Source of the DNA: a virus
Taxonomy: Duplodnaviria; Heunggongvirae; Uroviricota; Caudoviricetes
Direction: 5' to 3' (one strand)
Length of the DNA stretch: 13,911 bases
IMG/VR virus record: IMGVR_UViG_2609459774_000004
Positions 1-13,911 of the stretch are shown here, piece after piece. The notes beneath the pieces were generated by a model. That model searched no databases and was not told where the DNA came from. It was given only the letters and a program-made list of their open reading frames with translations. A program made the position numbers and the translations under genes. Every line of letters starts with the position of its first letter. The first letter of the stretch is position 1.

Positions 1-19
1 CTATTTGATAAATATTAAA

Positions 20-1315
20 TTAATTTTTCATTGCTTCGTTATGGGGCATGGTTGGGGCAAACTCGCTTAACTGTGTATTTAACAAAGCTACCTGTGCATT
101 ATTGTTTTCAGACATCCATTTTCCGTATACCTGAAATACCATTTGCGCATCTGCATGGCCCATCTGGTTTGCTATAAATGCCGGGTTAGCACCAGCTGTC
201 AGCGACCAGCAGGCATAAGTATGTCTCGACTGATATGATTTTCGATGGCGGAGTCCGGCACGTTTTATCGCTGCGTCCCACATCTGCCTTATTGAGTCAA
301 CGGTAAAATGGTCACCATAATTTTTTACTCTCGCTGACACTTCAGGTTGAAAAACAAAGGTGCATTTTTGTTTTTCTGTTCTGCCATACTCTCTGAGGTG
401 AACATCAATGATATGCTCTTTGCTCAGTCTCGTTAATGTCATCTGACTCCGGAGAGCGTCGATTGCTGGCTTAATAAGATGAATGACCCGATTGGTTCCC
501 GCCTGTGTTTTTGGTACCGTGAAACGGTCTTTTGCTAAATTTCTCCTGATCATCATTGTTCCATTTTTCAGATCTATGTCCTCCCATCCAAGTGCACACA
601 GCTCACCAGGGCGAACTCCAGTATAAACAGAAACACACCATAAATTTTTTGCTTGCTGATTTCTGCACGCATCGATAAGACGGATAAATTCTTCCCGCGA
701 AAGAGGATCCGGAATGGTTCTTGATTCCTTTAATGGCGAGATCCCCTTAAACGGATTATCTGCCAGGTAACCGTTATCAACACCAAACTGGAACACGGCG
801 TTAAGATTTGTCATGTAATTATTTACAGTTACAGCCGATCTCCCTGGTTGTGTAACAATATAGTTACTTTTGGGGATCTGGTATCCAGTCAGTAACTCTT
901 TACGAACCTCCAGTAATTTTTCTTTATTAATCGATGAGGCAAGATTTTTTTCACCGATTATGCTCAGGATATTTTTGATGACGGCACGGTATGTGTTGAG
1001 TGATGTTTTGGCGACTTCAGTTTCTTTCAGTGCCAGAAATTTTTCAGCCAGTTCTTTTATGGTTAAATCTTGTCGGGCCTCACCAAATTTTTCCAGATTG
1101 CGTGAGGAGGGAAACTGTTTTGCATAGTCGAAAACACCAGTTTTTATTGCGTAACAAACAGAGGAGCGTAGTTCACCTGCAACGCGCCTGTTTTTTGCTG
1201 TGTCAGGAACCCCCAGATTTTCCCTGACTCTTACGTCTTTATAAACAAACCAGATACGTAATTTCCCTCCATGGTTTTCCACGCCTGTCGGATATTTCAT
1301 TTCAACTTCTCTCAT
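20..1315 (-). CDS. Tyrosine-type phage integrase (site-specific recombinase), 431 aa
   Basis: Long minus-strand ORF from the track. C-terminal region carries the tyrosine-recombinase catalytic pattern (HRKSYQSRHTY with H-x-x-R, downstream Tyr in QVYGKW). Sits at the prophage end next to an excisionase-like gene. The second Met (MKYPTG, start near 1300) is an alternative start. Confidence 0.9.
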   Translation of the reverse strand: MREVEMKYPTGVENHGGKLRIWFVYKDVRVRENLGVPDTAKNRRVAGELRSSVCYAIKTGVFDYAKQFPSSRNLEKFGEARQDLTIKELAEKFLALKETEVAKTSLNTYRAVIKNILSIIGEKNLASSINKEKLLEVRKELLTGYQIPKSNYIVTQPGRSAVTVNNYMTNLNAVFQFGVDNGYLADNPFKGISPLKESRTIPDPLSREEFIRLIDACRNQQAKNLWCVSVYTGVRPGELCALGWEDIDLKNGTMMIRRNLAKDRFTVPKTQAGTNRVIHLIKPAIDALRSQMTLTRLSKEHIIDVHLREYGRTEKQKCTFVFQPEVSARVKNYGDHFTVDSIRQMWDAAIKRAGLRHRKSYQSRHTYACWSLTAGANPAFIANQMGHADAQMVFQVYGKWMSENNNAQVALLNTQLSEFAPTMPHNEAMKN

Positions 1316-1334
1316 TAGTTAGTGTGGCTTTTAG

Positions 1335-1586
1335 TCAAGTAAGATGACGTCTTGGTCTCGCTGATGCCTGGCGCTCAATCCAGCGATCAATTTCTTCCAG
1401 GTTGTAAAAGCATGGACTGTTATCCCATGGCATACCGTCATGAGCGACATGCTTATATTCCCTTCCTTCCATAAACGATTTTTCCCGGGCCTTTTTTAAC
1501 GTACCTTTTTTTATTCCTTTCAGCGCAATTAACTGCTCTTCGGATACCCATTTGCCGGGAGAGACAATCATGATTACTTCGCTCAT
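1335..1586 (-). CDS. Excisionase-like small DNA-binding protein (83 aa)
   Basis: Small basic ORF immediately upstream of and co-oriented with the integrase (19-nt gap), the classic xis-int arrangement. Function inferred from position and size only. Confidence 0.55.
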   Translation of the reverse strand: MSEVIMIVSPGKWVSEEQLIALKGIKKGTLKKAREKSFMEGREYKHVAHDGMPWDNSPCFYNLEEIDRWIERQASARPRRHLT

Positions 1587-1658
1587 CGATTTCTTTATCT
1601 CTTACATCAGACGAGCGCCGGTTGCAGAATACCAGTCACAACCGGCGACAGTTGAACA

Positions 1659-4130
1659 TTAAGAATCAGCCTGACTCGGGATCAGTTTTTGCCAGATAAC
1701 TGAAACGTATTTTGCCTGGTAACGGGCGTCATCAAGTGCATTATGGCGCTCACCTTCGAATGGAATAGCCGTTCTGGCATCGAAGTCTATGGCTTTCCCC
1801 AGCTCAACGATTGTGCGTACATCGCGATCGTTGTAGTAACGCCACGGGCAGGGGATCCCCTGCCGTTCGTATGAACGGCGCAAAATCGTGTTGTCGAAGT
1901 TGGCTCCATTTCCCCAAACCTGAACAAAAAATTCACCGGAGTTTTCGTCGATAAATTCTCGCAATTGTAACAGTGCATCATCTAACGGGATTTCATCGGT
2001 CATAATGGCAGATTGCGCTTCGCGTGATTGCTTAAGCCACCATTTAATGGTGTCCCGATCAATGACTCCGCCAGCAGTTTCCAGATCGATAGTCTTACTA
2101 AATTCCGGTCCCATATCTCCGGTTTGCGGATCGAAAAATATTGCACCTATTGAGATGATCGGGGCATCAGGATTTTTTCCCATGGTTTCAAGGTCGATCA
2201 TTAGATGGTCACACGTCCTGCTGGTGGATGTGATTTCGTGATGACCGTTCACCTTAATTGGGTGATCTGCCGTCTCGCCAGTTTCATTATCGCTATTGTG
2301 ATGCTGATTGCCGCCAGTGTTCTCCTTGTGTGGATGTTCAGCGCCTTCCATTTCCTCCGGATCATCTTCCTGAACTTCAACCTGATACTCTTCATCGAAT
2401 GTTTCTTGGTATGTTGCGTCGCCCATCACCGCGCCACAATCAGGGCAGTTGCCGCCGCCGGTCTGACCGCAGGCGGTGCAGACTTTTTCCACTTCCTGTT
2501 GCGCTACTGGTTCAGGCTGTTTCGTTTCTGGCTCGTTTTGTAACGCATTTGGACTGTTTTGTTCCGCTTTTTGGTAGTTCCGTTCCGATTCATGCTGGTT
2601 CTGGTTCACAGAATCGCGGGTCTGGAGCCCCTTAACCCATTTCGGATCATTCGGGTCACTAATCCCTTCAACAAATTCACCACGTGATGCAGCAAGCAAC
2701 TTATCGGCGTCAGGCTGGCTGATATTGGCTGCCTGCATAATTTTGTTTACTTCGTCAGCGGTAACTTTTATCGGCTCTGGTTGTTCTGAATCTTCAGCGG
2801 TATCTACATTTTGCGGTAAGCCCGTGTATGTGCCATTTTTTCGGGCAAAATATTCTTCTTTTGTGATTTCAGTGGCGCCAGCAGCCAGTGCCTTATCCAG
2901 ACCAGAGAGTTTGTTTGCGCGACCGTATTTTTCTCCGTCCTTATCTGCGAAGAGGAAATAGAACGGCCCCTCACGCTCTACAGATGGTTCAGCTTCCGGC
3001 GCGGTTTCATTTTTTGGGATATCAGATACCTCAGTTTCCACTGCATCAGTTTGTGTTTCTGATGACTGGAGAACATCAACAGTGCCCAGGTCTGTTTCTT
3101 CATTCTCAAACACGCCCTTTGTCGTCAGGTATTCGCAGATATATTTGTTCAGTGCTACGGGATCTTTGTGAATGTCGATCGGACGCTCACGGACAAGGCC
3201 AAAAATAGTTTGGCGGTCGTAGCGAAGGGCATCAGGCTGTTTGCGCATTGATGCCGAGATACGCTTCCAGTCTTCGCGGTCGTTGTCGATAACTTCTTTT
3301 TTTGCCCAGCGATGGATGCTGCCGTCAATGTTTCCGGCATCCACATCACTAGGCCAGAGAGCGTAGGCCAGTTCGTCATCCAGTGTTTTCCATGTCTGCT
3401 TGTATTCGCGATGAATGGCAGCAATGACCGGGCTGATTTTTCCTGTTGAATTTTCAGTGTACTGTTGATTGGCTCTGGCGCGGGCGAGATCAACAACAGA
3501 CGTGTATTTTCCGGTTTCCTTGCGTTCACCTTCGCGACGTTTTTTCCAGATGCGCATCTCTGCCTGAATTTCGGGCCATTTAGCACCAGGAATACATTTA
3601 TGCTTAACCCACCCAATGGCGTGCAACTTAAGCTCCGGATACATGGCGTTAACTTCTGGCATTTTCATCAACGCTTCAACGATATGTCCGTCGAATGTTG
3701 CCATGTCTTCCTGCAACAATTCCTGTGCGCTAATAACCATATCAACGGTGATGTTTTCACATGTGTCGAACTTAACCATGACAGCGTTCTGTACTTCAGG
3801 GGCCAGCTTGTCAAAAGTGACGTTCATCGGATCGGATTCAGTCTCAACCGGGACAAAAGAAGCAGACTCCTCATCCCAGCGGTTTTCCTGCATATATTCA
3901 GCATCCCATGAATCGAGGGCAGGGCGGGGTATGCCAGGTTTATCCTCGCAGACAATAAATTTATAAGCGCAGTCCTGAGCAGCCGGATAATGTTCCAGGA
4001 ATTGCCAGTGAAATTTTGCTCGAGCACGGCGTTCGTCGCCAGCTTCAATGGCTGTGGCTACAGCCACAGCGCCTTCTTCCCTTGTTGCCAGTTCGTCAGG
4101 AATAGCGGCGCAAATAAAGACTTTACTCAT
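1659..4130 (-). CDS. Exonuclease VIII-like protein with C-terminal DEDDh (DnaQ-like) 3'-5' exonuclease domain; 823 aa from the ATG at 4130 (frame open to TTG at 4166)
   Basis: Track ORF 1659..4166. The ATG at 4128-4130 (MSKVF) has a GAGG Shine-Dalgarno 9 nt upstream. The C-terminus shows three DEDDh motifs (LMIDLETMG; VWGNGANFDNTIL; HNALDDARYQAKY). The centre has a CxxC-x10-CxxC ribbon (CTACGQTGGGNCPDCG) flanked by acidic and His-rich low-complexity linkers. By position this corresponds to the gene that K-12 Qin retains only as the IS2-truncated ydfE remnant. Confidence 0.8.
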   Translation of the reverse strand: MSKVFICAAIPDELATREEGAVAVATAIEAGDERRARAKFHWQFLEHYPAAQDCAYKFIVCEDKPGIPRPALDSWDAEYMQENRWDEESASFVPVETESDPMNVTFDKLAPEVQNAVMVKFDTCENITVDMVISAQELLQEDMATFDGHIVEALMKMPEVNAMYPELKLHAIGWVKHKCIPGAKWPEIQAEMRIWKKRREGERKETGKYTSVVDLARARANQQYTENSTGKISPVIAAIHREYKQTWKTLDDELAYALWPSDVDAGNIDGSIHRWAKKEVIDNDREDWKRISASMRKQPDALRYDRQTIFGLVRERPIDIHKDPVALNKYICEYLTTKGVFENEETDLGTVDVLQSSETQTDAVETEVSDIPKNETAPEAEPSVEREGPFYFLFADKDGEKYGRANKLSGLDKALAAGATEITKEEYFARKNGTYTGLPQNVDTAEDSEQPEPIKVTADEVNKIMQAANISQPDADKLLAASRGEFVEGISDPNDPKWVKGLQTRDSVNQNQHESERNYQKAEQNSPNALQNEPETKQPEPVAQQEVEKVCTACGQTGGGNCPDCGAVMGDATYQETFDEEYQVEVQEDDPEEMEGAEHPHKENTGGNQHHNSDNETGETADHPIKVNGHHEITSTSRTCDHLMIDLETMGKNPDAPIISIGAIFFDPQTGDMGPEFSKTIDLETAGGVIDRDTIKWWLKQSREAQSAIMTDEIPLDDALLQLREFIDENSGEFFVQVWGNGANFDNTILRRSYERQGIPCPWRYYNDRDVRTIVELGKAIDFDARTAIPFEGERHNALDDARYQAKYVSVIWQKLIPSQADS

Positions 4131-4222
4131 TTGTTTTAACCTCATGACAGATTTAAGGATGAACAAATCCCTGCCATTGCTGGCATATAAGAATGAAACC
4201 GGATATTTATTACGGAACTGTT

Positions 4223-4414
4223 TTAAAGACCTGCCGGGATTTCGATATTATCCTGGTGAATAACTTTATCGACCGGGTAACAGTTACCGGGAATTTTCTG
4301 TTCGGTTGCTGCAGTCATACACTCCTGCATTGTCCTGTGAACACTGACTGCAATATCAACTGGCTCTCCGGAAACAAGAAAAACTGTCAGAACAAGCACA
4401 AATGCTGAATTCAT
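4223..4414 (-). CDS. ydfD: YdfD-like small lysis protein with N-terminal hydrophobic (transmembrane/signal-like) segment, 63 aa
   Basis: Internal Met of track ORF 4223..4468 (MNSAFVLVLTVFLVSG...). Its ATG overlaps the dicB stop as ATGA, implying translational coupling. Length (63 aa), N-terminal hydrophobic helix and position directly downstream of dicB match Qin ydfD. Confidence 0.65.
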   Translation of the reverse strand: MNSAFVLVLTVFLVSGEPVDIAVSVHRTMQECMTAATEQKIPGNCYPVDKVIHQDNIEIPAGL

Positions 4415-4599
4415 TGTGCACATCCTTTTGGCATCAGACGTAAACGAGCCAGCATTGAAACAATGCATATTTTATTTAATAGCTCCCGTTCTTGTTTTCT
4501 CTTGTTAATGGCATCTTCAGTAAATACTGGGTTACTGATAGTGACACCAATTTCAAAACAACCTTCAGACGTATTAACGTTTGGTAATAACGTTTTCAT
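4411..4599 (-). CDS. dicB: DicB cell-division inhibitor (MinC-dependent), 62 aa
   Basis: Internal Met of track ORF 4411..4704: MKTLLPNVNTSEGCFEIGVTISNPVFTEDAINKRKQERELLNKICIVSMLARLRLMPKGCAQ. GAGGA Shine-Dalgarno 7 nt upstream. Length, sequence and position downstream of the DicF sequence fit DicB of the Qin dicB operon. Confidence 0.8.
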   Translation of the reverse strand: MKTLLPNVNTSEGCFEIGVTISNPVFTEDAINKRKQERELLNKICIVSMLARLRLMPKGCAQ

Positions 4600-4768
4600 T
4601 ATCGCGTCCTCAACAATGAATTTTGTGATGCAGTGCCTGGTGCCTCCAGGTGATGTTAACCAGTTAACAATTAACGCCGGATACAGAGAATCCACCCATA
4701 ACACTGTTTTTGGTTTTAACTGTTCCGCGTGCGCTCAGCCGCATTCACCACATCACAAAATTCACTTT

Positions 4769-4826
4769 AAAAAGGGCGGCAGAGCAGTCACGGAGTAAAA
4801 CTGATACCGCCAAACGTCACCAGAAA
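4769..4826 (-). ncRNA. dicF: DicF small regulatory RNA (53-nt body 4774..4826 plus U-tail)
   Basis: Minus-strand sequence UUUCUGGUGACGUUUGGCGGUAUCAGUUUUACUCCGUGACUGCUCUGCCGCCC followed by UUUUU matches DicF as I recall it, including a GC-rich 3' hairpin and U-tract. Located between ydfC and dicB as in Qin. Confidence 0.75.
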
Positions 4827-5166
4827 ATTGATAACAGAGGGCGTTGCAGCGGGGTTGTCACTTAAGCGTATGGTCAACCTGACAACCCGGTGTCCTCAAC
4901 GGGGAAGGAATACCCCCGCCATACTTACCGCCGCGCCATTTCGCGGGTTGCCACAACCGGAAGCGCACGGTCGACGAAAATTTAACGACAGGCTATCTAT
5001 GAACCAGCTACCTCGCCGTGCGCTTTCGCGTTATGGTCTGACTTTTCAGGGAAATATCCTTTCAGTAAACTGTCAGTTCCGGATGCGCACCCGTGTCCGG
5101 CGCACGCACTCCACCTCACCCGTGGAGAACTCCTTAATTACTAACCTTAGCTTTGTTGATTAGCTA

Positions 5167-5385
5167 CTAACGCGGGTATGTAATCATTCTGGCAATGCTT
5201 AATGCCGCTGCTTTTTCCAGATTGGTGATATCCTGCTCCAGAGCGGACAGATTTTCAGCCTGCTTAGCCCTGGCTTCATTAGCCCATTTCAGATCCTGCG
5301 CTGCATTAATTTTCTGGCGCATCCACTCATAAAGTTCATCATCGGTATAGTCTGGCGCGATGATGACGGGTTCTCGTTTCTGCAT
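5167..5385 (-). CDS. ydfC: YdfC-like small protein, 72 aa
   Basis: Track ORF with AGGA Shine-Dalgarno 6 nt upstream of the ATG. Length and position (third gene of the leftward operon after ydfA/ydfB) match Qin ydfC. Function unknown. Confidence 0.6.
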   Translation of the reverse strand: MQKREPVIIAPDYTDDELYEWMRQKINAAQDLKWANEARAKQAENLSALEQDITNLEKAAALSIARMITYPR

Positions 5386-5414
5386 ACTGATTCCTCGCGG
5401 TGCTGTTTCGCTTA

Positions 5415-5543
5415 TCAGCCGTTAGATTTTGCCGAACTGGAAAGCGCGTGTTTAAACTCACTGAAGCTGAGAGCTTCTTCGCCTTCGGCAAGGCCTTCGA
5501 AGTATTCTTCGTAAGCCTTTTCCATGATTGTGTCGAAATCCAT
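5415..5543 (-). CDS. ydfB: YdfB-like small acidic protein, 42 aa (below the ORF-track size cutoff)
   Basis: Hand-translated: MDFDTIMEKAYEEYFEGLAEGEEALSFSEFKHALSSSAKSNG. GGTGA Shine-Dalgarno about 5 nt upstream of the ATG, which sits 2 nt after the ydfA stop. The 42-aa length matches Qin ydfB. It competes with the overlapping basic track ORF 5339..5548. Confidence 0.5.
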   Translation of the reverse strand: MDFDTIMEKAYEEYFEGLAEGEEALSFSEFKHALSSSAKSNG

Positions 5544-5544
5544 A

Positions 5545-5700
5545 TCACTCACCTGAGTTTCTTTCCAGCCAGCGACGGGCACCATTTTCGGTTTTAAACG
5601 TTTTGCTTTTGGTATACGTCATTGCGGTGAACGTGCCGTCCTGGTTTGGAAACACGCCGTACACCAGAGATTCGTTGTTGCCAAGATCGATAGTATCCAT
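5545..5700 (-). CDS. ydfA: YdfA-like small protein, 51 aa
   Basis: Internal Met of track ORF 5545..5754 (MDTIDLGNNESLVYGVF...) with AGGT 5 nt upstream. First gene downstream of the pL-like promoter. Length 51 aa matches Qin ydfA. Confidence 0.6.
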   Translation of the reverse strand: MDTIDLGNNESLVYGVFPNQDGTFTAMTYTKSKTFKTENGARRWLERNSGE

Positions 5701-5777
5701 GCTGACCTCATTTCCCCTTAACGCCGGGGTAGCGGAACTGTTTGCTGAGAACACCGTGCGGTGTCTTGATGGAAAGT

Positions 5778-5833
5778 AATTTAGAATAACCTAACATGAT
5801 AGGCAAGTGTTTTTTGTTAGATTGGTCTAACAA
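5778..5833 (-). promoter_or_regulatory. Leftward early promoter candidate with two operator-like palindromes (OL)
   Basis: Minus-strand -35 TTGCCT (5801-5806) and -10 TAAATT (5778-5783) with 17-nt spacer. Perfect palindrome TTGTTAGA-ttgg-TCTAACAA at 5814-5833. Second site TTAGGTTATTCTAA (minus-strand reading of 5781-5794) repeats the 6277-6292 site at OR. Confidence 0.4.
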
Positions 5834-5868
5834 AAAGAGTGGGCGCAACTAATCACTTGAAAAGAATG

Positions 5869-6276
5869 TTATTTTATTGATTTATTTTTACGCGCTTTAA
5901 GCATTTCTTCGAAGAGTTTGTTGAAGTTTTCTACTCTTGCGCGCATTTCAGACAGCAAGGCTTCCTGCTCGGAAGATGGAAGAGCATCGAATAATTCGAT
6001 CAATTCTTTGTGGTTGGGAGTTAGCTCTGTTTCCACATGAAGTTCTTGTGCAGGCACTGGTGCCTTGTCTTCGTCACCAAACATTAGCCATGTAGGTGAG
6101 CACTTCAGAGCATCCGCTAAAGCAAACAATCGTTTTCCGACTGGCTGGGTTTCGTCTCTTTCCCATTGTGAAATTGTGACGTGAGCAACTCCAGCGAGGC
6201 GCGCAGCTTCTCGTTGTGTTAAGCGTAATTCTTTTCGTCGCGCCAGAACTCGCTGGCCTAGGGTTCTTGTATCCAT
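5869..6276 (-). CDS. dicA: DicA-type HTH (XRE family) prophage repressor, 135 aa, no S24 peptidase domain
   Basis: N-terminal HTH (LRLTQREAARLAGVAHVTISQWE). Divergent from a Cro-like gene across a 77-bp operator region. The 135-aa length matches DicA. C-terminal half is a short helical tail with no LexA-like Ser/Lys cleavage module. Confidence 0.85.
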   Translation of the reverse strand: MDTRTLGQRVLARRKELRLTQREAARLAGVAHVTISQWERDETQPVGKRLFALADALKCSPTWLMFGDEDKAPVPAQELHVETELTPNHKELIELFDALPSSEQEALLSEMRARVENFNKLFEEMLKARKNKSIK

Positions 6277-6353
6277 AGTTAGGTAATTCTAATTTTTCTT
6301 GACTTAGGTATCCCGCGCACAATAATGTTAGAAAAGTCTAACAAGAGGGGGCT
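6277..6353. promoter_or_regulatory. Divergent promoter/operator region between dicA and dicC (OR)
   Basis: Rightward -35 TTGACT (6299-6304), 17-nt spacer, -10 ATAATG (6322-6327). Palindrome TGTTAGA-aaag-TCTAACA at 6326-6343 overlaps the -10/+1. Second site AGTTAGGTAATTCTAA at 6277-6292 abuts the dicA start. Confidence 0.5.
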
Positions 6354-6356
6354 TTG

Positions 6357-6584
6357 ATGCTTAAAGTTGACGCAATTACTTTTTTTGGCAGCAAAACAAA
6401 GCTTGCCAATGCCGCAGGGGTGAGACTGGCAAGTGTTGCTGCTTGGGGGATACTGGTTCCTGAAGGTCGCGCGATGCGTCTACAGGAGGCATCTGGCGGG
6501 GAGCTTCAGTATGATCCCAAAGTTTATGATGAATATCGTAAGACGAAGCGGGCGGGGCGGTTGAACAATGAAAATCACTCCTGA
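6357..6584 (+). CDS. dicC: DicC / Cro-like (YdaS-family) small DNA-binding protein
   Basis: Track ORF 6354..6584 (76 aa from TTG). The ATG at 6357 has GAGGGGG 6 nt upstream. Protein MLKVDAITFFGSKTKLANAAGVRLASVAAWG... has a Cro/YdaS-like HTH pattern and is divergent from the repressor. Confidence 0.75.
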   Translation: MLKVDAITFFGSKTKLANAAGVRLASVAAWGILVPEGRAMRLQEASGGELQYDPKVYDEYRKTKRAGRLNNENHS

Positions 6585-6885
6585 ACAGGCTCGTGAGGCT
6601 CTGGATGCCTGGATATGTCGACCAGGAATGACACAGGAGCAGGCGACGATATTAATCACTGAAGCATTCTGGGCTTTGAAAGAGCGCCCGAACATCGATG
6701 TTCAGCGTGTCACATATGAAGGTGGCGCGATTGATCAGCGAGCGCTTGGCGTTAATCGAGTGAAGATATTTGAACGCTGGAAGGCTATCGACACCAGGGA
6801 TAAGCGTGAAAAGTTCACGGCGCTAGTGCCTGCAATTATGGAGGCTACAGATTATTCCTTACCTCGTGAGTTTTGCCTTTGCTGA
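6568..6885 (+). CDS. YdaT-like (CII-analog family) protein, 105 aa, probably C-terminally truncated
   Basis: Overlaps the dicC 3' end. Shares the ...ERWKAIDTRDKREKF..LVPAIMEA...LPRE pattern I recall from Rac YdaT (about 140 aa). Ends early and overlaps the next ORF by 20 nt in another frame. Confidence 0.55.
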   Translation: MKITPEQAREALDAWICRPGMTQEQATILITEAFWALKERPNIDVQRVTYEGGAIDQRALGVNRVKIFERWKAIDTRDKREKFTALVPAIMEATDYSLPREFCLC

Positions 6886-7333
6886 TTACTCCAGGTCTGC
6901 GGCAAGTAAGGCTCGCTGTGAGCATTGTTCAGGTACGGGATTTTATAATGTATTGCGCGAAGTGGTGAAACACTACAGACGCGGGGAATCTGTAATCAAG
7001 GAAGAATGGGTGAAGGAACTATGTCAGCATTGCCATGGTAAGGGCGAAGCCAGCACAGCGTGCAGAGGGTGTAAGGGTAAAGGGATTGTTCTGGATGAAA
7101 AAAGAACCCGGTTTCATGGCGTACCGGTATATAAGATTTGTGGGCGTTGTAATGGAAACCGGTTTAGTCGTTTACCGACCACGCTGGCACGACGTCATGT
7201 CCAGAAGCTGGTACCAGACCTGACCGATTATCAGTGGTATAAGGGGTATGCGGACGTCATTGGTAAACTGGTAACAAAGTGCTGGCAGGAAGAAGCATAC
7301 GCGGAAGCGCAATTGAGGAAGGTGACGAGATAA
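6866..7333 (+). CDS. Cys-rich zinc-finger ORF (four CxxCxGxG/R DnaJ-like repeats), 155 aa; possibly the 3' remnant of a Q-like late antiterminator
   Basis: Repeats CEHCSGTG, CQHCHGKG, CRGCKGKG, CGRCNGNR. Only a GTG start with no Shine-Dalgarno and no internal ATG; upstream in-frame stop at 6824-6826. It occupies the position of quuQ relative to cspF/cspB/essQ in Qin. Could equally be annotated as a pseudogene. Confidence 0.4.
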   Translation: MSFAFADYSRSAASKARCEHCSGTGFYNVLREVVKHYRRGESVIKEEWVKELCQHCHGKGEASTACRGCKGKGIVLDEKRTRFHGVPVYKICGRCNGNRFSRLPTTLARRHVQKLVPDLTDYQWYKGYADVIGKLVTKCWQEEAYAEAQLRKVTR

Positions 7334-7364
7334 ATGATTTTTGCTGAAGATGGCGACATGATGT

Positions 7365-7393
7365 TTGCATTTTTCAAAAAATATGGATAAAAT
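7365..7393 (+). promoter_or_regulatory. Near-consensus sigma-70 promoter (TTGCAT-17-TAAAAT), candidate late promoter (pR'-like)
   Basis: -35 TTGCAT at 7365-7370, 17-nt spacer, -10 TAAAAT at 7388-7393, about 30 nt after the Cys-rich ORF stop, where lambdoid late promoters sit. Confidence 0.45.
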
Positions 7394-7437
7394 TTTTTCA
7401 ACGATGGGCTTTGTATACCCGACGTTAAGAAAAAGTA

Positions 7438-7463
7438 GAAAACCTGCTGATGAGCGGGTTTTG
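7438..7463 (+). terminator. Hairpin with U-rich tail about 45 nt downstream of the candidate late promoter (tR'-like)
   Basis: AAAACCUGC-ugauga-GCGGGUUUU: 6-bp core stem with one G-U pair, extended by A/U pairs, followed by a G then more Us. Weak as an intrinsic terminator. Confidence 0.35.
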
Positions 7464-7754
7464 TGCTTTAAATGGGGCAATGGTAATGTTGAATCTCATC
7501 CCGGGACTCATGTCTGTTAACTTATTATTTAGCTGGTGACTTGGTTATTTGCCTGATGTTTAAAATGTTTTCTTCCAGTACAATGTCCCTAAACACAATG
7601 AGTCTGCTTATTATATTATTAGCAGAGCTATTACGGCCAAAGTACAGCATAAGCTTTTAAAGCCAATCAACCAGTCATCAAGACAGACGGGGTTATTCAT
7701 AAAAACTCTCCATGTGTGATCCGATGGGGCCTGAAATTAAAGCTTTAATATAGC

Positions 7755-7967
7755 TCATGAAAGGTAAACATTGGCAGCTGAAGGGCCACGCAGACCATTT
7801 ATCCGGCAAAATTCCACGCGTAATCCGGTGGTAATTTCTTCTGCATCGCGGAGATTGAGCGCTGAAACATGAAGCTGGACATCGATACGACCATCGGATG
7901 GGGTGATAAGACCCTTGCCGCTTTTGCCGTCAAAGGTTTTGACAATTCCTGTCATTTTACGGGACAA
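7755..7967 (-). CDS. cspF: Cold-shock-domain protein, CspF/CspH subfamily, 70 aa
   Basis: [27 protein letters not shown]...[20 protein letters not shown] matches the CspF/CspH pattern I recall. Divergent from a cspB-like gene as in Qin. cspF versus cspH cannot be resolved by eye. Confidence 0.85.
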
Positions 7968-8267
7968 AAAAATTCCTTAATACTGATAACTTGGCGCACT
8001 ATACACACGTTCCTGAAGAAAGCTATAGTTTTTTGATGGGGTTGAAGATGGCTGGATGTCTAAAATAAACATTGCTTCATATGTTCAACTATGCGTTAAT
8101 GATTGCGTCGGTTTGAAGAACAGACGATATACGAAGTAGTTTACTAAAGCAGTTCTCATTTCAGGTGTTATTCACTTATTCCTTCTTTGAGTCTCTCCAA
8201 TTAAGTACGAAGTCGTTTCTGTTATGCAAACCATTTATGCCGAAAGGCTCAAGTTAAGGAATGTAGA
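7968..8267. promoter_or_regulatory. Divergent promoter and long 5'-UTR region between the cspF-like and cspB-like genes
   Basis: 300-bp AT-rich intergenic region between divergent cold-shock genes; cspA-family genes typically have long 5' leaders. No specific element mapped. Confidence 0.35.
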
Positions 8268-8483
8268 ATGTCAAATAAAATGACTGGTTTAGTAAAATGG
8301 TTTAACGCTGATAAAGGTTTCGGCTTTATTTCTCCTGTTGATGGTAGTAAAGATGTGTTTGTGCATTTTTCTGCGATTCAGAATGATAATTATCGAACCT
8401 TATTTGAAGGTCAAAAGGTTACCTTCTCTATAGAGAGTGGTGCTAAAGGTCCTGCAGCAGCAAATGTCATCATTACTGATTAA
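8268..8483 (+). CDS. cspB: Cold-shock protein CspB-like, 71 aa
   Basis: [67 protein letters not shown]... carries the RNP1/RNP2 motifs of the CspA family and the CspB-type variable residues. AAGGAA Shine-Dalgarno upstream. Confidence 0.9.
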
Positions 8484-8764
8484 AATTCATCGCTCGTCTG
8501 TATACGATAACGAAGAAGGCTGATGCCTGAGTAGAGATACGGACAGAGTAGTGAATATTGGATCTCTTTAATAAAAAGTAAGGAGGTCCAATACATGAAA
8601 CAATGGCTAGCATATTTGGCAAAATCTTAATCAGGAAAAGTATGCTAACCATTGTGGTGAAGTGCAGGTTTGCTGCATGAATAGTTTTACAGCAGAAGCT
8701 AACTGCTGGCATGGCAAAACAAAGTGCGTAAGTGGATGACTCCCACAAAAAGCACCACAATCTC

Positions 8765-8790
8765 AAACCCGCTCAGGCGGGTTTTTTATT
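8765..8790 (+). terminator. Rho-independent terminator (possibly bidirectional)
   Basis: AAACCCGC-ucag-GCGGGUUUUUUAUU: 8-bp GC-rich stem, tetraloop, U6 tail, preceded by an A-tract. Lies downstream of cspB on the plus strand and of the 56-aa zinc-ribbon gene on the minus strand. Confidence 0.6.
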
Positions 8791-8846
8791 ATCTGCTTTA
8801 AATATATTATTAAAATATAAAAAATACTTGTTACTAATAAAATCAA

Positions 8847-9017
8847 TCAGGCTACAGCTTTAAGATTTGTCTGGAATACTTTGTTGCAATGAGGGCAGAT
8901 CAAAAGGGCACCTTTTTGTACTCTTGAAAAACTGTGTTCTGACTCTTGGGTGCAGTTTGGGCAGGAACATTTAACGAGATAATTACGGCGTGATTTTGAG
9001 TTTTTACGTTCTGACAT
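8847..9017 (-). CDS. Small zinc-ribbon protein (C-x-C-x2-C ... C-x2-C), 56 aa; YnfU/YmcF-like
   Basis: Internal Met of track ORF 8847..9068: MSERKNSKSRRNYLVKCSCPNCTQESEHSFSRVQKGALLICPHCNKVFQTNLKAVA. AGGAA Shine-Dalgarno 6 nt upstream. Family name from memory of csp-adjacent small proteins in K-12; not verified. Confidence 0.5.
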   Translation of the reverse strand: MSERKNSKSRRNYLVKCSCPNCTQESEHSFSRVQKGALLICPHCNKVFQTNLKAVA

Positions 9018-9236
9018 AGGCTTTTCCTGTATAAATGGCCGTATACAGTACACTAAATATGAAAACATTTCTCGTATTATTATTTTATATATGACTTTCT
9101 TTCAAAATAATTACCCACATTTTTAATGTGTATGTTTTTTTAGCGCCGTTGAGAACAACGTGTGCTGTCAAAACTACCCCGTAGACTCCGATCTTTTCAA
9201 ACATATTGCACCATCCGTGTACATCGGGGTGAGGAT

Positions 9237-9452
9237 ATGAAATCAATGGATAAGTTAACAACAGGTGTTGCCTATGGCACATCGGCGGGTAATGCTGGTT
9301 TCTGGGCATTGCAGTTACTCGATAAAGTAACTCCGTCACAGTGGGCTGCAATCGGTGTGCTGGGTAGCCTGGTTTTTGGCCTGCTGACGTATCTGACAAA
9401 TCTTTATTTCAAGATTAAAGAAGACAGGCGTAAGGCTGCGAGAGGAGAGTAA
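9237..9452 (+). CDS. essQ: Class II holin (S21-type pinholin) with dual-start motif MKSM, 71 aa
   Basis: Internal Met of track ORF 9162..9452 with GAGGA Shine-Dalgarno. [29 protein letters not shown]...[13 protein letters not shown] resembles EssD/EssQ and phage 21 S. Met1 and Met4 give the antiholin/holin dual start. Symbol assigned by synteny. Confidence 0.85.
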
Positions 9453-9456
9453 TCCA

Positions 9457-9764
9457 ATGACTCAAGACTATGAACTGGTTGTGAAAGGAGTCCGTAATTT
9501 TGAGAATAAAGTTACGGTAACTGTAGCCTTACAGGACAAAGAACGCTTTGACGGTGAAATTTTTGACCTGGATGTCGCCATGGACCGTGTTGAAGGAGCT
9601 GCGCTGGAGTTTTATGAGGCAGCAGCCAGAAGGAGCGTCCGGCAAGTCTTCCTGGAAGTAGCAGAAAAATTGTCAGAAAAAGTTGAGTCTTATCTGCAGC
9701 ATCAATACTCCTTTAAGATTGAAAATCCTGCCAATAAGCACGAGCGTCCTCATCATAAATATCT

Positions 9765-9768
<4 letters not shown>
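9457..9768 (+). CDS. ydfR: YdfR-like protein (DUF1327-type), 103 aa, inside the lysis cassette
   Basis: AGGAGAG Shine-Dalgarno. 103 aa between holin and endolysin, as ydfR is in Qin. Its stop overlaps the endolysin start (ATGA). Confidence 0.75.
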
Positions 9769-10792
<1,024 letters not shown>

Positions 10793-11155
10793 GGTAATAT
10801 TAAATCGGAACATTTACATCGCGGAATGTAAAATTTAAATAAAAAGGACTCTTCCATGAGCCAAAATTCCTGAAATCTTAAGGGTAAGATAAAAGGTCTT
10901 AATCAGAATGACACGTTTTATTAATAAATAAAGCTATTCTTTCATTGCTGTGTTTTTCTTTACAAAAGTAATCCTTGCTATGGGTGGTTAATCATGAGTT
11001 AATGGTGTTCTGGTTTGTTACAAATTTATCTGAAGCAGTCATTGTTATAATTTTATTATTTGTACCTCTTGAGATTTCCTTGTTGGTTTTTCTCTCTGAT
11101 ATTTTTTTTTCGGACCATTCTGCCCAAGGGCTAATTTCTTCAAAAGGTAATAATT

Positions 11156-11368
11156 ATGTCTAACAAAATGACTGGTTTAGTGAAATGGTTTAACCCTGAA
11201 AAAGGTTTTGGTTTCATCACGCCGAAAGATGGCAGCAAAGATGTGTTTGTCCATTTCTCAGCAATTCAGAGCAACGATTTCAAAACATTAACTGAGAATC
11301 AGGAAGTTGAATTTGGTATTGAGAACGGACCTAAAGGTCCTGCCGCTGTTCATGTAGTGGCGCTTTGA
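11156..11368 (+). CDS. cspI: Cold-shock protein CspI, 70 aa
   Basis: [70 protein letters not shown] matches CspI of Qin as I recall it. Long AT-rich 5' leader upstream. Confidence 0.9.
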
Positions 11369-11567
11369 GGTAGACAATATTACAAACCATATTCACTTTA
11401 GATGCCCGTGTTGTCATGGTTCCCAGTATAGAACATCATCTTTTGATGTTTCTGACATGAATCCTTTCGGGGCAAAATGTATCTTTTGTAAATCAATGAT
11501 GATTACATTTGATAATATTTCACAATACTTAAATGTTAGCCATCTGTCGTTAGATTTAAGAAAGTGA
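11358..11567 (+). other. Candidate second small zinc-ribbon ORF (paralog of the 8847..9017 protein) with no canonical start upstream of its Cys motifs
   Basis: Hand-translated frame: ...HFRCPCCHGSQYRTSSFDVSDMNPFGAKCIFCKSMMITFDNISQYLNVSHLSLDLRK*. Cys spacing (C-x-CC ... C-x2-C, with SF in the linker) parallels the 56-aa protein. The only ATG is at 11457, after the first Cys cluster. The stop is 8 nt before the terminator hairpin. May be a degenerate paralog or use a non-canonical start. Confidence 0.25.
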
Positions 11568-11574
11568 AAATGAA

Positions 11575-11597
11575 GGCTCCTTCGGGAGCTTTTTTGC
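11575..11597 (+). terminator. Rho-independent terminator after the cspI unit
   Basis: GGCUCC-uucg-GGAGCU followed by UUUUU: 5-6 bp stem with UUCG tetraloop and U-tract. Confidence 0.5.
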
Positions 11598-11638
11598 TTA
11601 GTGTCTAGTCGATGGATACTCACATATTACGGTAACAT

Positions 11639-11869
11639 ATGAAAAAAATAATAGTTTTTTTTAACTCTGAACCAGCAATGGTAGTGCCAGTGATGACCGG
11701 AGTTAACACCATCATGCGTGAATACCCAAATGGCGAAACAACACACCTCACTGTAATGGCTGCAGGGTTTCCATCTCTGACCGGAGATCATAAAGTCATT
11801 TATGTAGCAGCGGATCGACATGTAACTTCAGAAGAAATTCTGGAAGCAGCAATGAGACTCTTGAATTGA
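11639..11869 (+). CDS. ynfN: YnfN/YmcE-like small protein, 76 aa
   Basis: Track ORF. Lies between cspI and gnsB, where ynfN lies in Qin (ymcE-gnsA is the paralogous pair). Weak Shine-Dalgarno. Assigned by position and size only. Confidence 0.55.
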   Translation: MKKIIVFFNSEPAMVVPVMTGVNTIMREYPNGETTHLTVMAAGFPSLTGDHKVIYVAADRHVTSEEILEAAMRLLN

Positions 11870-12041
11870 TTTGATTCTAATGCATTGATAATAAATGATA
11901 ATCATCTTTATCTGTTTGTGTGAAATTTAGACCGTCGTATGTTGATTATTGCGATGTTTCATCTTATCTTTTATACGTTTGCTCCATATAATTGACACTA
12001 CTGTGTACCAGGACAGTCATAACAGACTAAAAGAGGAAATG

Positions 12042-12215
12042 ATGAACATTGAAGAGTTAAAAACAAAAACAGAAGCAGATATTTCTGAATATATAACAAA
12101 AAAAATCATTGAGCTTAAGAAAAAGACCGGGAAAGAAGTTACCAGTATCCAGTTTACTGCACGGGAAAAAATGACTGGTCTTGAAAGCTATGATATCAAG
12201 ATTGATTTAATCTAG
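12042..12215 (+). CDS. gnsB: GnsA/GnsB-family protein, 57 aa
   Basis: Internal start of track ORF 11949..12215. AGAGGAA Shine-Dalgarno then ATGATG. MNIEELKTKTEADISEYITKKIIELKKKTGKEVTSIQFTAREKMTGLESYDIKIDLI matches the Gns family pattern MNIEELKK...FTAREKMTGLESYD. Confidence 0.8.
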   Translation: MNIEELKTKTEADISEYITKKIIELKKKTGKEVTSIQFTAREKMTGLESYDIKIDLI

Positions 12216-12510
12216 TATGTTTATAGTATTAGCATCAATTTCTCATCAGATGCTATTCAACAATACAAATTACCCATAAACCTCGTTTTTACGGGGTTTT
12301 GTTATATTTAAACATTACCGAATAGATATAAATCTCGATTGTCGATGGTATTGGTTGTGTGACAATACCTAGTCTTTCCGGTATGCCTGAAGAGAATACA
12401 AACGACAGATTATGTAAGGGAAACGCGCTGAAACTTTCACTCTTTCATGCTGAGTGATTTGACGTTATATTTTTAGCCGCAAGTGAAGAGCAAACGAATG
12501 GAGCGACAAA

Positions 12511-12717
12511 ATGCATAAAGATCAATACATTGATACCCCCTCCCAGGAGCAGGTTCGTGTAAAAACTATGCTTAATAGCACCATTTCGATGGGTTACCCG
12601 GATGTTGTAATTGCATGTATAGAACATCAAGTATCTCTGGAAGCATTCAGGGCAATTGAGGCCGCGTTAGTAAAGCACGATAAGAATACGAAGGATTATT
12701 CCCTGTTGGTTGACTGA
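12511..12717 (+). CDS. Hypothetical protein, 68 aa, at the ydfO position; possibly the N-terminal part of a frameshifted gene
   Basis: GGAG Shine-Dalgarno 8 nt upstream of the ATG. After the stop an open reading frame continues in another frame for about 85 codons (12717 to about 12980) without a start codon. Confidence 0.45.
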
Positions 12718-13074
12718 TCACCATAACTGCTAACCATTCTGACCATTTCACAAGTGACAGAGTCAATATCGTATTCTGTCACTGTCAGGCTAATACAGTA
12801 CTGCAATTCAACTACAGCAATGCCTCGTATTTAGGTGAATTTACAATATCGTTCTATTCGGATACCAACTGCATTTCTGAAGATAAGGCATTTCGGTTCG
12901 CGTATTTTCCCCTCATGCTCGTCAGTCCTGCGCGTAGTAAGAAACAGGACACTCACACTAATTTGTGTGGGCATGCTGTGATGTCCTTCTGAATTATCCC
13001 CATGCCATTATGTAAAGCTCTGTTTCAGATGCTCGTCACGGTTGTCAGGCTGTCGGGTCCTCCCAGTGGGGGTC

Positions 13075-13105
13075 CCTGCCACGGGGCGGGAGCGTCGCGG
13101 AAAAA
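13075..13105. other. cos-like sequence (lambdoid cosN-like GC-rich core)
   Basis: ACGGGGCGGGAGCGTCGCGG at 13081-13100 resembles the lambda cosN region (ACGGGGCGGCGACCTCGCGGG as I recall it). Lies downstream of the lysis/moron region where cos precedes the terminase small-subunit gene in lambdoid phages. Confidence 0.35.
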
Positions 13106-13348
13106 GGCTAGTTTTTGCATTTCCATGGCGGCGGCAGCATGTTTGGTAATTTATTGATAATTAAAAGTTATTTATCTTTTCACCTGTACAATATTTTTTT
13201 CTCCCTGTCATTAGACCAGTTTACAATTAATTGAAATATATAAATAAACATGATTTTTAGACTGGCCCCCTGAATCTCCAGACAACCAGTATCACTTAAA
13301 TAAGTGATAGTCTTAATACTAGTTTTTAGACTAGTCATTGGAGAACAG

Positions 13349-13714
13349 ATGATTGATGTCTTAGGGCCGGAGAAACGCAGACGGCGTACCACACAGGAAA
13401 AGATCGCAATTGTTCAGCAGAGCTTTGAACCGGGGATGACGGTCTCCCTCGTTGCCCGGCAACATGGTGTAGCAGCCAGCCAGTTATTTCTCTGGCGTAA
13501 GCAATACCAGGAAGGAAGTCTTACTGCTGTCGCCGCCGGAGAACAGGTTGTTCCTGCCTCTGAACTTGCTGCCGCCATGAAGCAGATTAAAGAACTCCAG
13601 CGCCTGCTCGGCAAGAAAACGATGGAAAATGAACTCCTCAAAGAAGCCGTTGAATATGGACGGGCAAAAAAGTGGATAGCGCACGCGCCCTTATTGCCCG
13701 GGGATGGGGAGTAA
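13349..13714 (+). CDS. insC: IS2 transposase OrfA (InsC), 121 aa
   Basis: Internal ATG of track ORF 13304..13714. [56 protein letters not shown]... is the IS2 InsC HTH protein. Confidence 0.9.
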
Positions 13715-13911
13715 GCTTAGTCAGCCGTTGTCTCCGGGTGTCGCGTGCGCAGTTGCACGTCATTCTCAGACGAACCGATGACTGGATGGATGGCCGCCGC
13801 AGTCGTCACACTGATGATACGGATGTGCTTCTCCGTATACACCATGTTATCGGAGAGCTGCCCACGTATGGTTATCGTCGGGTATGGGCGCTGCTTCGCA
13901 GACAGGCAGAA
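13666..13911 (+). CDS. insD: IS2 transposase OrfB (InsD), N-terminal part in the -1 frame, truncated by the window end
   Basis: Slippery heptamer A-AAA-AAG at 13666-13672 near the end of insC. The -1 frame reads [82 protein letters not shown] to the last base of the window. Confidence 0.75.

Follow-up and report, generated by a model that had tools for sequence, protein, structure and literature searches.

A decayed lambdoid prophage of E. coli, analysed here as a stretch of 13,911 nucleotides (the window), carries what we regard, judging from its sequence, as a genuine and complete λ-type cos site (cosQ, cosN, an IHF site and a putative cosB), to the right of which lies the left part of an IS2 element. 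The reading that we favour, with a probability of about two in three, is that of a simple IS2 insertion into the spacer between cosB and the terminase gene, with cos intact and the terminase gene located beyond the end of the contig. The features on which the argument rests are listed below (positions are those of the window).

6843 to 6847, no strand: junction of an internal deletion; window 1-6847 corresponds to 12001-18849, and window 6843-7630 to 25890-26677, of the intact prophage locus of strain TKEC21-59 (L003).
13055 to 13061, plus strand: cosQ-like heptamer GGGTCCT, found by a composite pattern match, starting 29 nt before the top-strand nick.
13081 to 13100, plus strand: cosN, with the top-strand nick between 13083 and 13084 and an inferred bottom-strand nick between 13095 and 13096.
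13096 to 13257, plus strand: cosB-like region between cosN and the position of the terminase gene, near-identical in phages Tritos and cdtI.
13147 to 13159, minus strand: IHF-consensus site TATCAATAAATTA, an exact match to WATCAANNNNTTR, at +64 to +76 from the nick.
13253 to 13257, plus strand: left copy of a predicted 5-bp IS2 target duplication, ATTTT, from comparison with uninterrupted relatives.
13258 to 13911, plus strand: left 654 nt of IS2, with the left inverted repeat (IRL) from 13258, orfA at 13349-13714 and the start of orfB, cut off by the contig end.

The first-pass annotation had pointed to a GC-rich, cosN-like core, and this core proved to be part of a real λ-type cos. The cosN 20-mer, ACGGGGCGGGAGCGTCGCGG (13081-13100), contains the 12-nt 5′ cohesive end GGGCGGGAGCGT (13084-13095). 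A λ-derived cosN pattern, ACGGGGCGGNNNCNTCGCGG, in which only the bases in common with λ cosN are specified, has a single match in the window, at 13081-13100, and matches none of 200 dinucleotide-preserving shuffles; a composite cosQ and cosN pattern likewise matches the window once, at 13055-13089, and none of 200 shuffles. The termini of cos were inferred from the deposited ends of the Tritos (OV696610) and cdtI (AB285204) records. From base 1 onward both records read GGGCGGGAGCGTCGCGG, which is the window from 13084 onward, and the last bases of the linear Tritos record, CTGCCACG, were aligned by blastn of the phage collection such that the final base is window position 13083. A direct reading of the ends gives the same picture: Tritos finishes with CCCCTGCCACG and opens with GGGCGGGAGCGTCGCGGAAAAAGG, cdtI opens likewise, and in the window TCCCTGCCACG to the left of the nick runs on into GGGCGGGAGCGTCGCGGAAAAAGG to its right. 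At the corresponding place λ has GGTTACG followed by GGGCGGCGACCTCGCGGG. CG dinucleotides are present at both nicks, GGGCGGGAGCGT being preceded by CCACG and followed by CGCGG in the window, just as the λ cohesive end, GGGCGGCGACCT, is preceded by TTACG and followed by CGCGG. The heptamer GGGTCCT starts 30 nt before the nick in both λ and the Qin prophage of E. coli K-12.

Two open reading frames, of 51 codons (13002-13157, plus strand) and 39 codons (13115-13234, plus strand), overlap cosN and cosB, and a blastn comparison of the window's cos with λ finds no similarity across cos, the likeness being apparent only by global alignment and motif searches. One could therefore hold that the GC-rich motif resembles cosN by chance or is coding sequence. 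This reading is effectively refuted by the two phage genome records that begin or end exactly there, by the absence of the pattern from shuffled sequences, by its conservation across unrelated left flanks (see below) and by the lack of family support for the overlapping frames. Both frames are most likely spurious; the gene calls of the source contig include the shorter one.

The conservation of the site was assessed on 80 loci from IMG/VR in which the cognate small terminase is encoded; comparison of the 260 nt preceding its gene gave 55 distinct sequences. Both GGGTCCT and the IHF-consensus site are found unchanged in 55 of 55, and the cosN 20-mer in all except one. The exception, L033 (IMGVR_UViG_2778261579_000006), has the cohesive end GGGCGGCAGCGG, which differs at positions 7 and 12 only, i.e., in the right half. 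Across 56 sequences, most alignment columns of the stretch of ca. 160 nt between cosN and the insertion point are invariant. At least five unrelated left flanks join the packaging module within 1-2 bases of GGGTCCT, so that homology starts at cosQ; this mosaic boundary in the IMG/VR relatives (L027-L106) is equivalent to window positions ca. 13024-13061. The region is common in E. coli, with about 584 of 5,426 complete genomes carrying at least 80% of the 558-bp cos region.

Comparison with λ reveals the distribution of differences that is expected of λ-like phages, which keep the cohesive end's left half and the flanking CG, positions 7-12 varying naturally (9 and 12 in N15; 8, 9 and 11 in Gifsy-1) and tolerating changes with no measurable effect on cos cleavage (Feiss et al. 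2015, PMC4669245). The cohesive ends of λ and the window are identical at 8 of 12 positions (1-6, GGGCGG, as well as 10 and 12) and differ at 7, 8, 9 and 11 only, all in the right half. Also common to the two are GGGTCCT ca. 30 nt upstream of the nick, a downstream IHF-consensus site and a small-terminase start ca. 190-200 nt after the nick (in the window's module, as seen in its relatives). In contrast, the λ cosB is unrelated to that of the window, and the λ small terminase belongs to PF07471 (Phage_Nu1), whereas that of the window's relatives belongs to PF07278 (DUF1441).

The concept of cosB that we apply here is that of PMC4669245: bound to cosB, the small terminase subunit places the large one so that it nicks cosN, and termination requires cosQ. 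The cosB-like stretch yielded no set of repeats corresponding to R3/R2/R1 of λ. Motifs matching the IHF consensus occur three times in the AT-rich window against 1.1 expected, a count that is not significant alone; by its position the site at 13147-13159 is the counterpart of λ I1, and any function is assigned to it by position only. Of the two copies of a lone 10-nt direct repeat, TTTTCACCTG, the second extends across the IS2 insertion point, which raised the idea that IS2 splits a putative terminase-binding repeat. The idea was dropped because 18 of 55 relatives show variation in the first copy, the pair thus being unconserved, and the repeat is barely above chance in such an AT-rich stretch.

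The closest known counterparts are Tritos and cdtI. Their cosN 20-mer and 12-nt cohesive end are identical to those of the window, between the nick and the insertion point their 174 nt depart from the window at a few positions only, and their spacer and small-terminase start match the uninterrupted relatives of the window beyond the insertion point. The window differs from these phages in that its cos lies in a defective prophage, with IS2 between cos and the expected terminase start. K-12 Qin, which along with λ had been proposed for alignment, occupies the same chromosomal neighbourhood and shares with the window the lysis and cold-shock region (ydfT, cspF, cspB, holin, the lysis genes ydfR-rrrQ-rzpQ, cspI, ynfN and gnsB); it too has a cos with a decayed packaging and tail region behind it. 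The λ-type assignment of cosN was borne out by these comparisons and a Qin-type assignment was not: Qin has a λ-identical cos (GGGCGGCGACCT), λ-like R sites and a Nu1-type nohA, whereas the window has the cdtI/Tritos module, with an IS2 at the boundary of cosB and the terminase gene. The window's cos thus stands apart from the cos/nohQ region of K-12 Qin, its cosB being unrelated and its relatives carrying a DUF1441 small terminase. The point at which the packaging modules were swapped, as seen on comparing K-12 (L025 7003-7240) with window 12718-13257, lies between gnsB, together with an ORF of 68 amino acids that K-12 does not have, and cos.

The left terminus of IS2 at 13258 is canonical, TAGACTGGCCCCC (also written TAGACTGG and TAGACTGGCCCCCTGAATC), and homology to uninterrupted relatives ends at 13257, so the boundary that had been proposed is exact; the anatomy of IS2 is taken from PMC3299598. 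Over all 654 IS2 nucleotides, the window agrees without a mismatch with a complete 1,331-bp IS2 copy of strain E94, which is flanked by a 5-bp duplication, GGAGC. As in simple IS2 insertions, a canonical IRL, an orfA whose product matches HTH_Tnp_1 and the A6G frameshift window are present. Simple insertions also have a 5-bp target duplication, of which the window, having the left 654 nt of the element only, can show one side. The transposase genes and the phage late operon point in the same direction, and the IRL end faces cos.

IS2 begins 158 bp from the cosN core (this had been put at ca. 160 bp), and 174 nt separate the nick from the insertion point. Uninterrupted relatives read ACATGATTTT up to the insertion point and CACCTGCCAG after it, or, with the presumptive target included, GATTTT and then CACCTGCCAGATGGAGTTGCTTATG. 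The longer reading, AAATAAACATGATTTT continued by CACCTGCCAGATGGAGTTGCTTATGTCAAATGTG, is found in strains TKEC21-59, LH13-b and E94 and in phages cdtI and Tritos. In these uninterrupted relatives a GGAG Shine-Dalgarno sequence lies 12 nt, and the ATG of the small-terminase gene 22 nt, downstream of the insertion point; this ATG is that of the RefSeq prophage calls and of the Tritos record, the cdtI record placing the gene start 12 nt earlier. The gene is a DUF1441 gene in RefSeq and an annotated small terminase in cdtI and Tritos; its product is assigned to PF07278 (E = 1.6e-44) and PHROG 141, “terminase small subunit” (E = 7.9e-65). Intact prophages have the genes for the large terminase, the portal and the protease/capsid fusion after it. 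Thus, the expectation that a small-terminase gene normally starts shortly after cos holds for this module. IS2 does stand between cos and that gene, as the first-pass annotation had stated, but it does not occupy the gene's position, having inserted 22 nt before the ATG. Since both the ATG and the Shine-Dalgarno sequence lie beyond the insertion point, the insertion is intergenic, in a short spacer outside any reading frame and, as far as cos can be delimited, outside cos as well; on this delimitation cos is unbroken, and the terminase frame is predicted to be unbroken too. An insertion between genes is the case that the first-pass annotation itself had named as telling against its view. That cosB lies wholly to the left of the insertion is not proven, the small-terminase binding sites of this module being putative.

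With a simple insertion, the right end of IS2 (ending in ATATAGGGGCAAATCCA) would be followed by ATTTTCACCTGCCAGATGGAG, that is, the right inverted repeat (IRR) by the second copy of ATTTT and then CACCTGCCAGATGGAG. The IRR carries the outward -35 element of Pjunc, the promoter of the minicircle junction (PMC3299598), and we considered a hybrid promoter that would serve the terminase gene from the right end of IS2. The candidate -10 elements, hexamers located 16-18 nt downstream in the target (ATTTTC, TTTTCA and TTTCAC), are poor as judged by eye, and this possibility was set aside.

The window makes up the final 13,911 nt of a draft contig, JNPW01000001.1 (assembly GCA_000703925.1; 414,343 nt), as established by exact look-up of a rare ORF that spans the deletion (6568-6885) and by the coordinate offset. 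The contig ends 654 nt into IS2. Short-read assemblies usually break at multicopy IS elements, and in the genomes of this group IS2 is indeed multicopy, being present at up to 41 places per genome. Since the draft contig stops inside IS2, the absence of a terminase gene is an assembly boundary and not an observed loss. The first-pass statement that the packaging region has been cut from its genes is one that cannot be read from the window.

An ORF on the minus strand that crosses the junction of the cos region and IS2 (13180-13392) was used for exact look-up, which returned one further assembly, GCA_001912085.1. Its contig LGMQ01000003.1 (L004 1-6820) is 100% identical to window 6846-13665 and also ends inside IS2. 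The left junction was found in none of the 5,426 complete E. coli genomes, nor as an exact junction pattern in the GTDB species representatives or IMG/VR. The predicted right junction was absent from the complete E. coli genomes and, again searched as an exact pattern, from the GTDB species representatives and IMG/VR; nor did it occur in the JGI metagenomes, where the search covered the right junction only. A chimeric right-junction query against the complete E. coli genomes retrieved only two genomes, in which IS2 lies ca. 590 bp further upstream.

Being situated at the end of a draft contig and occurring in none of the complete genomes searched, the junction might be suspected of being an assembly artefact, a chimeric contig end. 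There is next to no chance of this: the junction is base-identical in GCA_001912085.1, a strain that differs elsewhere in the prophage, and the break falls exactly where the IS2 inverted repeat begins, which a chimera would not be expected to do twice. The recovery of the same junction from two assemblies of different strains shows that the junction is real.

The same assembly separates the IS2 insertion from the internal deletion. Relative to the intact TKEC21-59 prophage, the window lacks 7,040 bp (L003 18850-25889), comprising the 3′ part of a ydaT-like gene, replication-region genes, kwaB, hokD, rem, ydfU and the first 262 nt of ydfT. At the junction, an ORF for a YdaT-like N-terminal part (6568-6885) runs into the 5′-truncated ydfT antiterminator gene (6866-7333). 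The deletion junction was found in none of the complete RefSeq E. coli genomes searched; it is shared by three Logan read-set assemblies. GCA_001912085.1 has the same IS2 junction as the window, a full-length ydfT and no 7-kb deletion; its left arm (L004) is of the K-12/E94 type, with relBE, hokD, rem and ydfU. The presence of a full-length ydfT beside an identical IS2 junction indicates that the deletion and the IS2 insertion are independent, and the insertion is probably not later than the deletion, either predating it or being unconnected with it. With its replication functions gone and the late antiterminator lacking the N-terminal third, the prophage is defective independently of IS2. The insertion had been described as a second, independent inactivating event. 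Its independence is upheld by GCA_001912085.1, whereas the word “inactivating” is unsupported: terminase acts in trans, and cosQ, cosN and, as far as can be judged, cosB lie to the left of the insertion.

What follows IS2 on its right can be approached through relatives. The identity of E94 with the window is 100% over 11576-13257 and 99.98% over 6843-11581. In this strain (L001 14582-17265), the first ca. 70 codons of the small-terminase gene are fused in frame to a tail-fibre gene (S74 peptidase), forming an ORF of 894 codons; the deletion that created the fusion took out the whole head and tail region. A homology search with the protein encoded by this fusion retrieved only full-length tail-fibre representatives. 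The right-hand side of cos is intact in LH13-b, and the large terminase gene is truncated in SC516. Because close relatives such as E94 and SC516 differ to the right of cos, the terminase genes may already be gone in the lineage of the window.

These observations bear on another reading, in which IS2 marks the edge of a rearrangement, either a deletion or inversion next to IS2 and mediated by it, or recombination of two IS2 copies, having removed the terminase and structural genes and left cos orphaned. We consider it possible, though unlikely. The prophage is already decayed, structural genes have been lost repeatedly at this locus (the E94 fusion, the SC516 truncation, and nohA with tail-fibre remnants in K-12 Qin), IS2 is present in many copies per genome and our searches recovered nothing to the right of it. 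All this would suit a rearrangement, yet there is no positive evidence of one: the IRL terminus is clean and the flank is colinear with intact phages, the same junction has been kept in two different strains, and a contig break inside IS2 is to be expected from short reads whatever follows. An IS2 of identical orientation is located ca. 590 bp upstream of the small terminase gene in strain E7476 and is followed by annotated small and large terminase genes, which demonstrates that simple IS2 insertions do occur in this neighbourhood.

Insertions of IS2 and other IS3-family elements recur between the Rz-like gene and cos, at L001 11557-12785 (E94), L026 1511-2739 (E7476) and L006 8039-9267. The recurrent sites are between ynfQ and ynfN, inside the ORF of 68 amino acids, and between ynfN and gnsB. 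This pattern suggests that the AT-rich region from the Rz-like gene to cos is a local hot-spot for IS elements or a zone in which they are tolerated.

We therefore return to the simple insertion as the best explanation. According to this reading, a lambdoid prophage integrated next to rspB would have carried the Tritos/cdtI packaging module, with a DUF1441 small terminase and the cohesive end GGGCGGGAGCGT, and the target of IS2 would have been the spacer of 22 nt that separates the end of cosB from the start codon of the small-terminase gene. The ribosome-binding site and the reading frame of the terminase gene, which we infer to follow IS2, would then be intact, and 1,336 bp (IS2 and the 5-bp duplication) would have been added between cosB and the terminase gene. 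The added spacing should leave cos recognition possible, terminase being diffusible; because terminase works in trans and the cos subsites lie to the left of the insertion, recognition is presumably not abolished. The only plausible cost would be that transcription of the head and tail genes suffers some polarity. Transcription of the λ late operon starts at pR′ and passes through cos to the head genes. Antitermination of the λ N type classically overrides the polarity of IS insertions, and Q-modified polymerase likely overrides it too. The functional effect of the insertion as such may accordingly have been mild.

A further reading is that of a defective prophage whose functional cos has been uncoupled from its own terminase, a phage of the Tritos/cdtI type, either resident in the same cell or superinfecting it, packaging from this chromosomal cos rightwards into IS2 and the host DNA next to it. 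We regard this as very improbable. If true, the locus would be a helper-dependent hot-spot of transduction, comparable to cos-bearing chromosomal islands, and selection could explain why cos has been conserved to the base amid decay.

In sum, the locus is a known type of cos beside an ordinary IS2 insertion at a contig end, and not a novel arrangement. For readings made from sequence alone it holds a trap, in that a gene seemingly missing beside an IS element at the end of a window may only mark the end of a draft contig. The gain is mainly one of annotation, namely the exact coordinates of cos and the cohesive end of a packaging module common among the prophages of E. coli, with K-12-type Qin and the prophage of the window representing alternative packaging modules.
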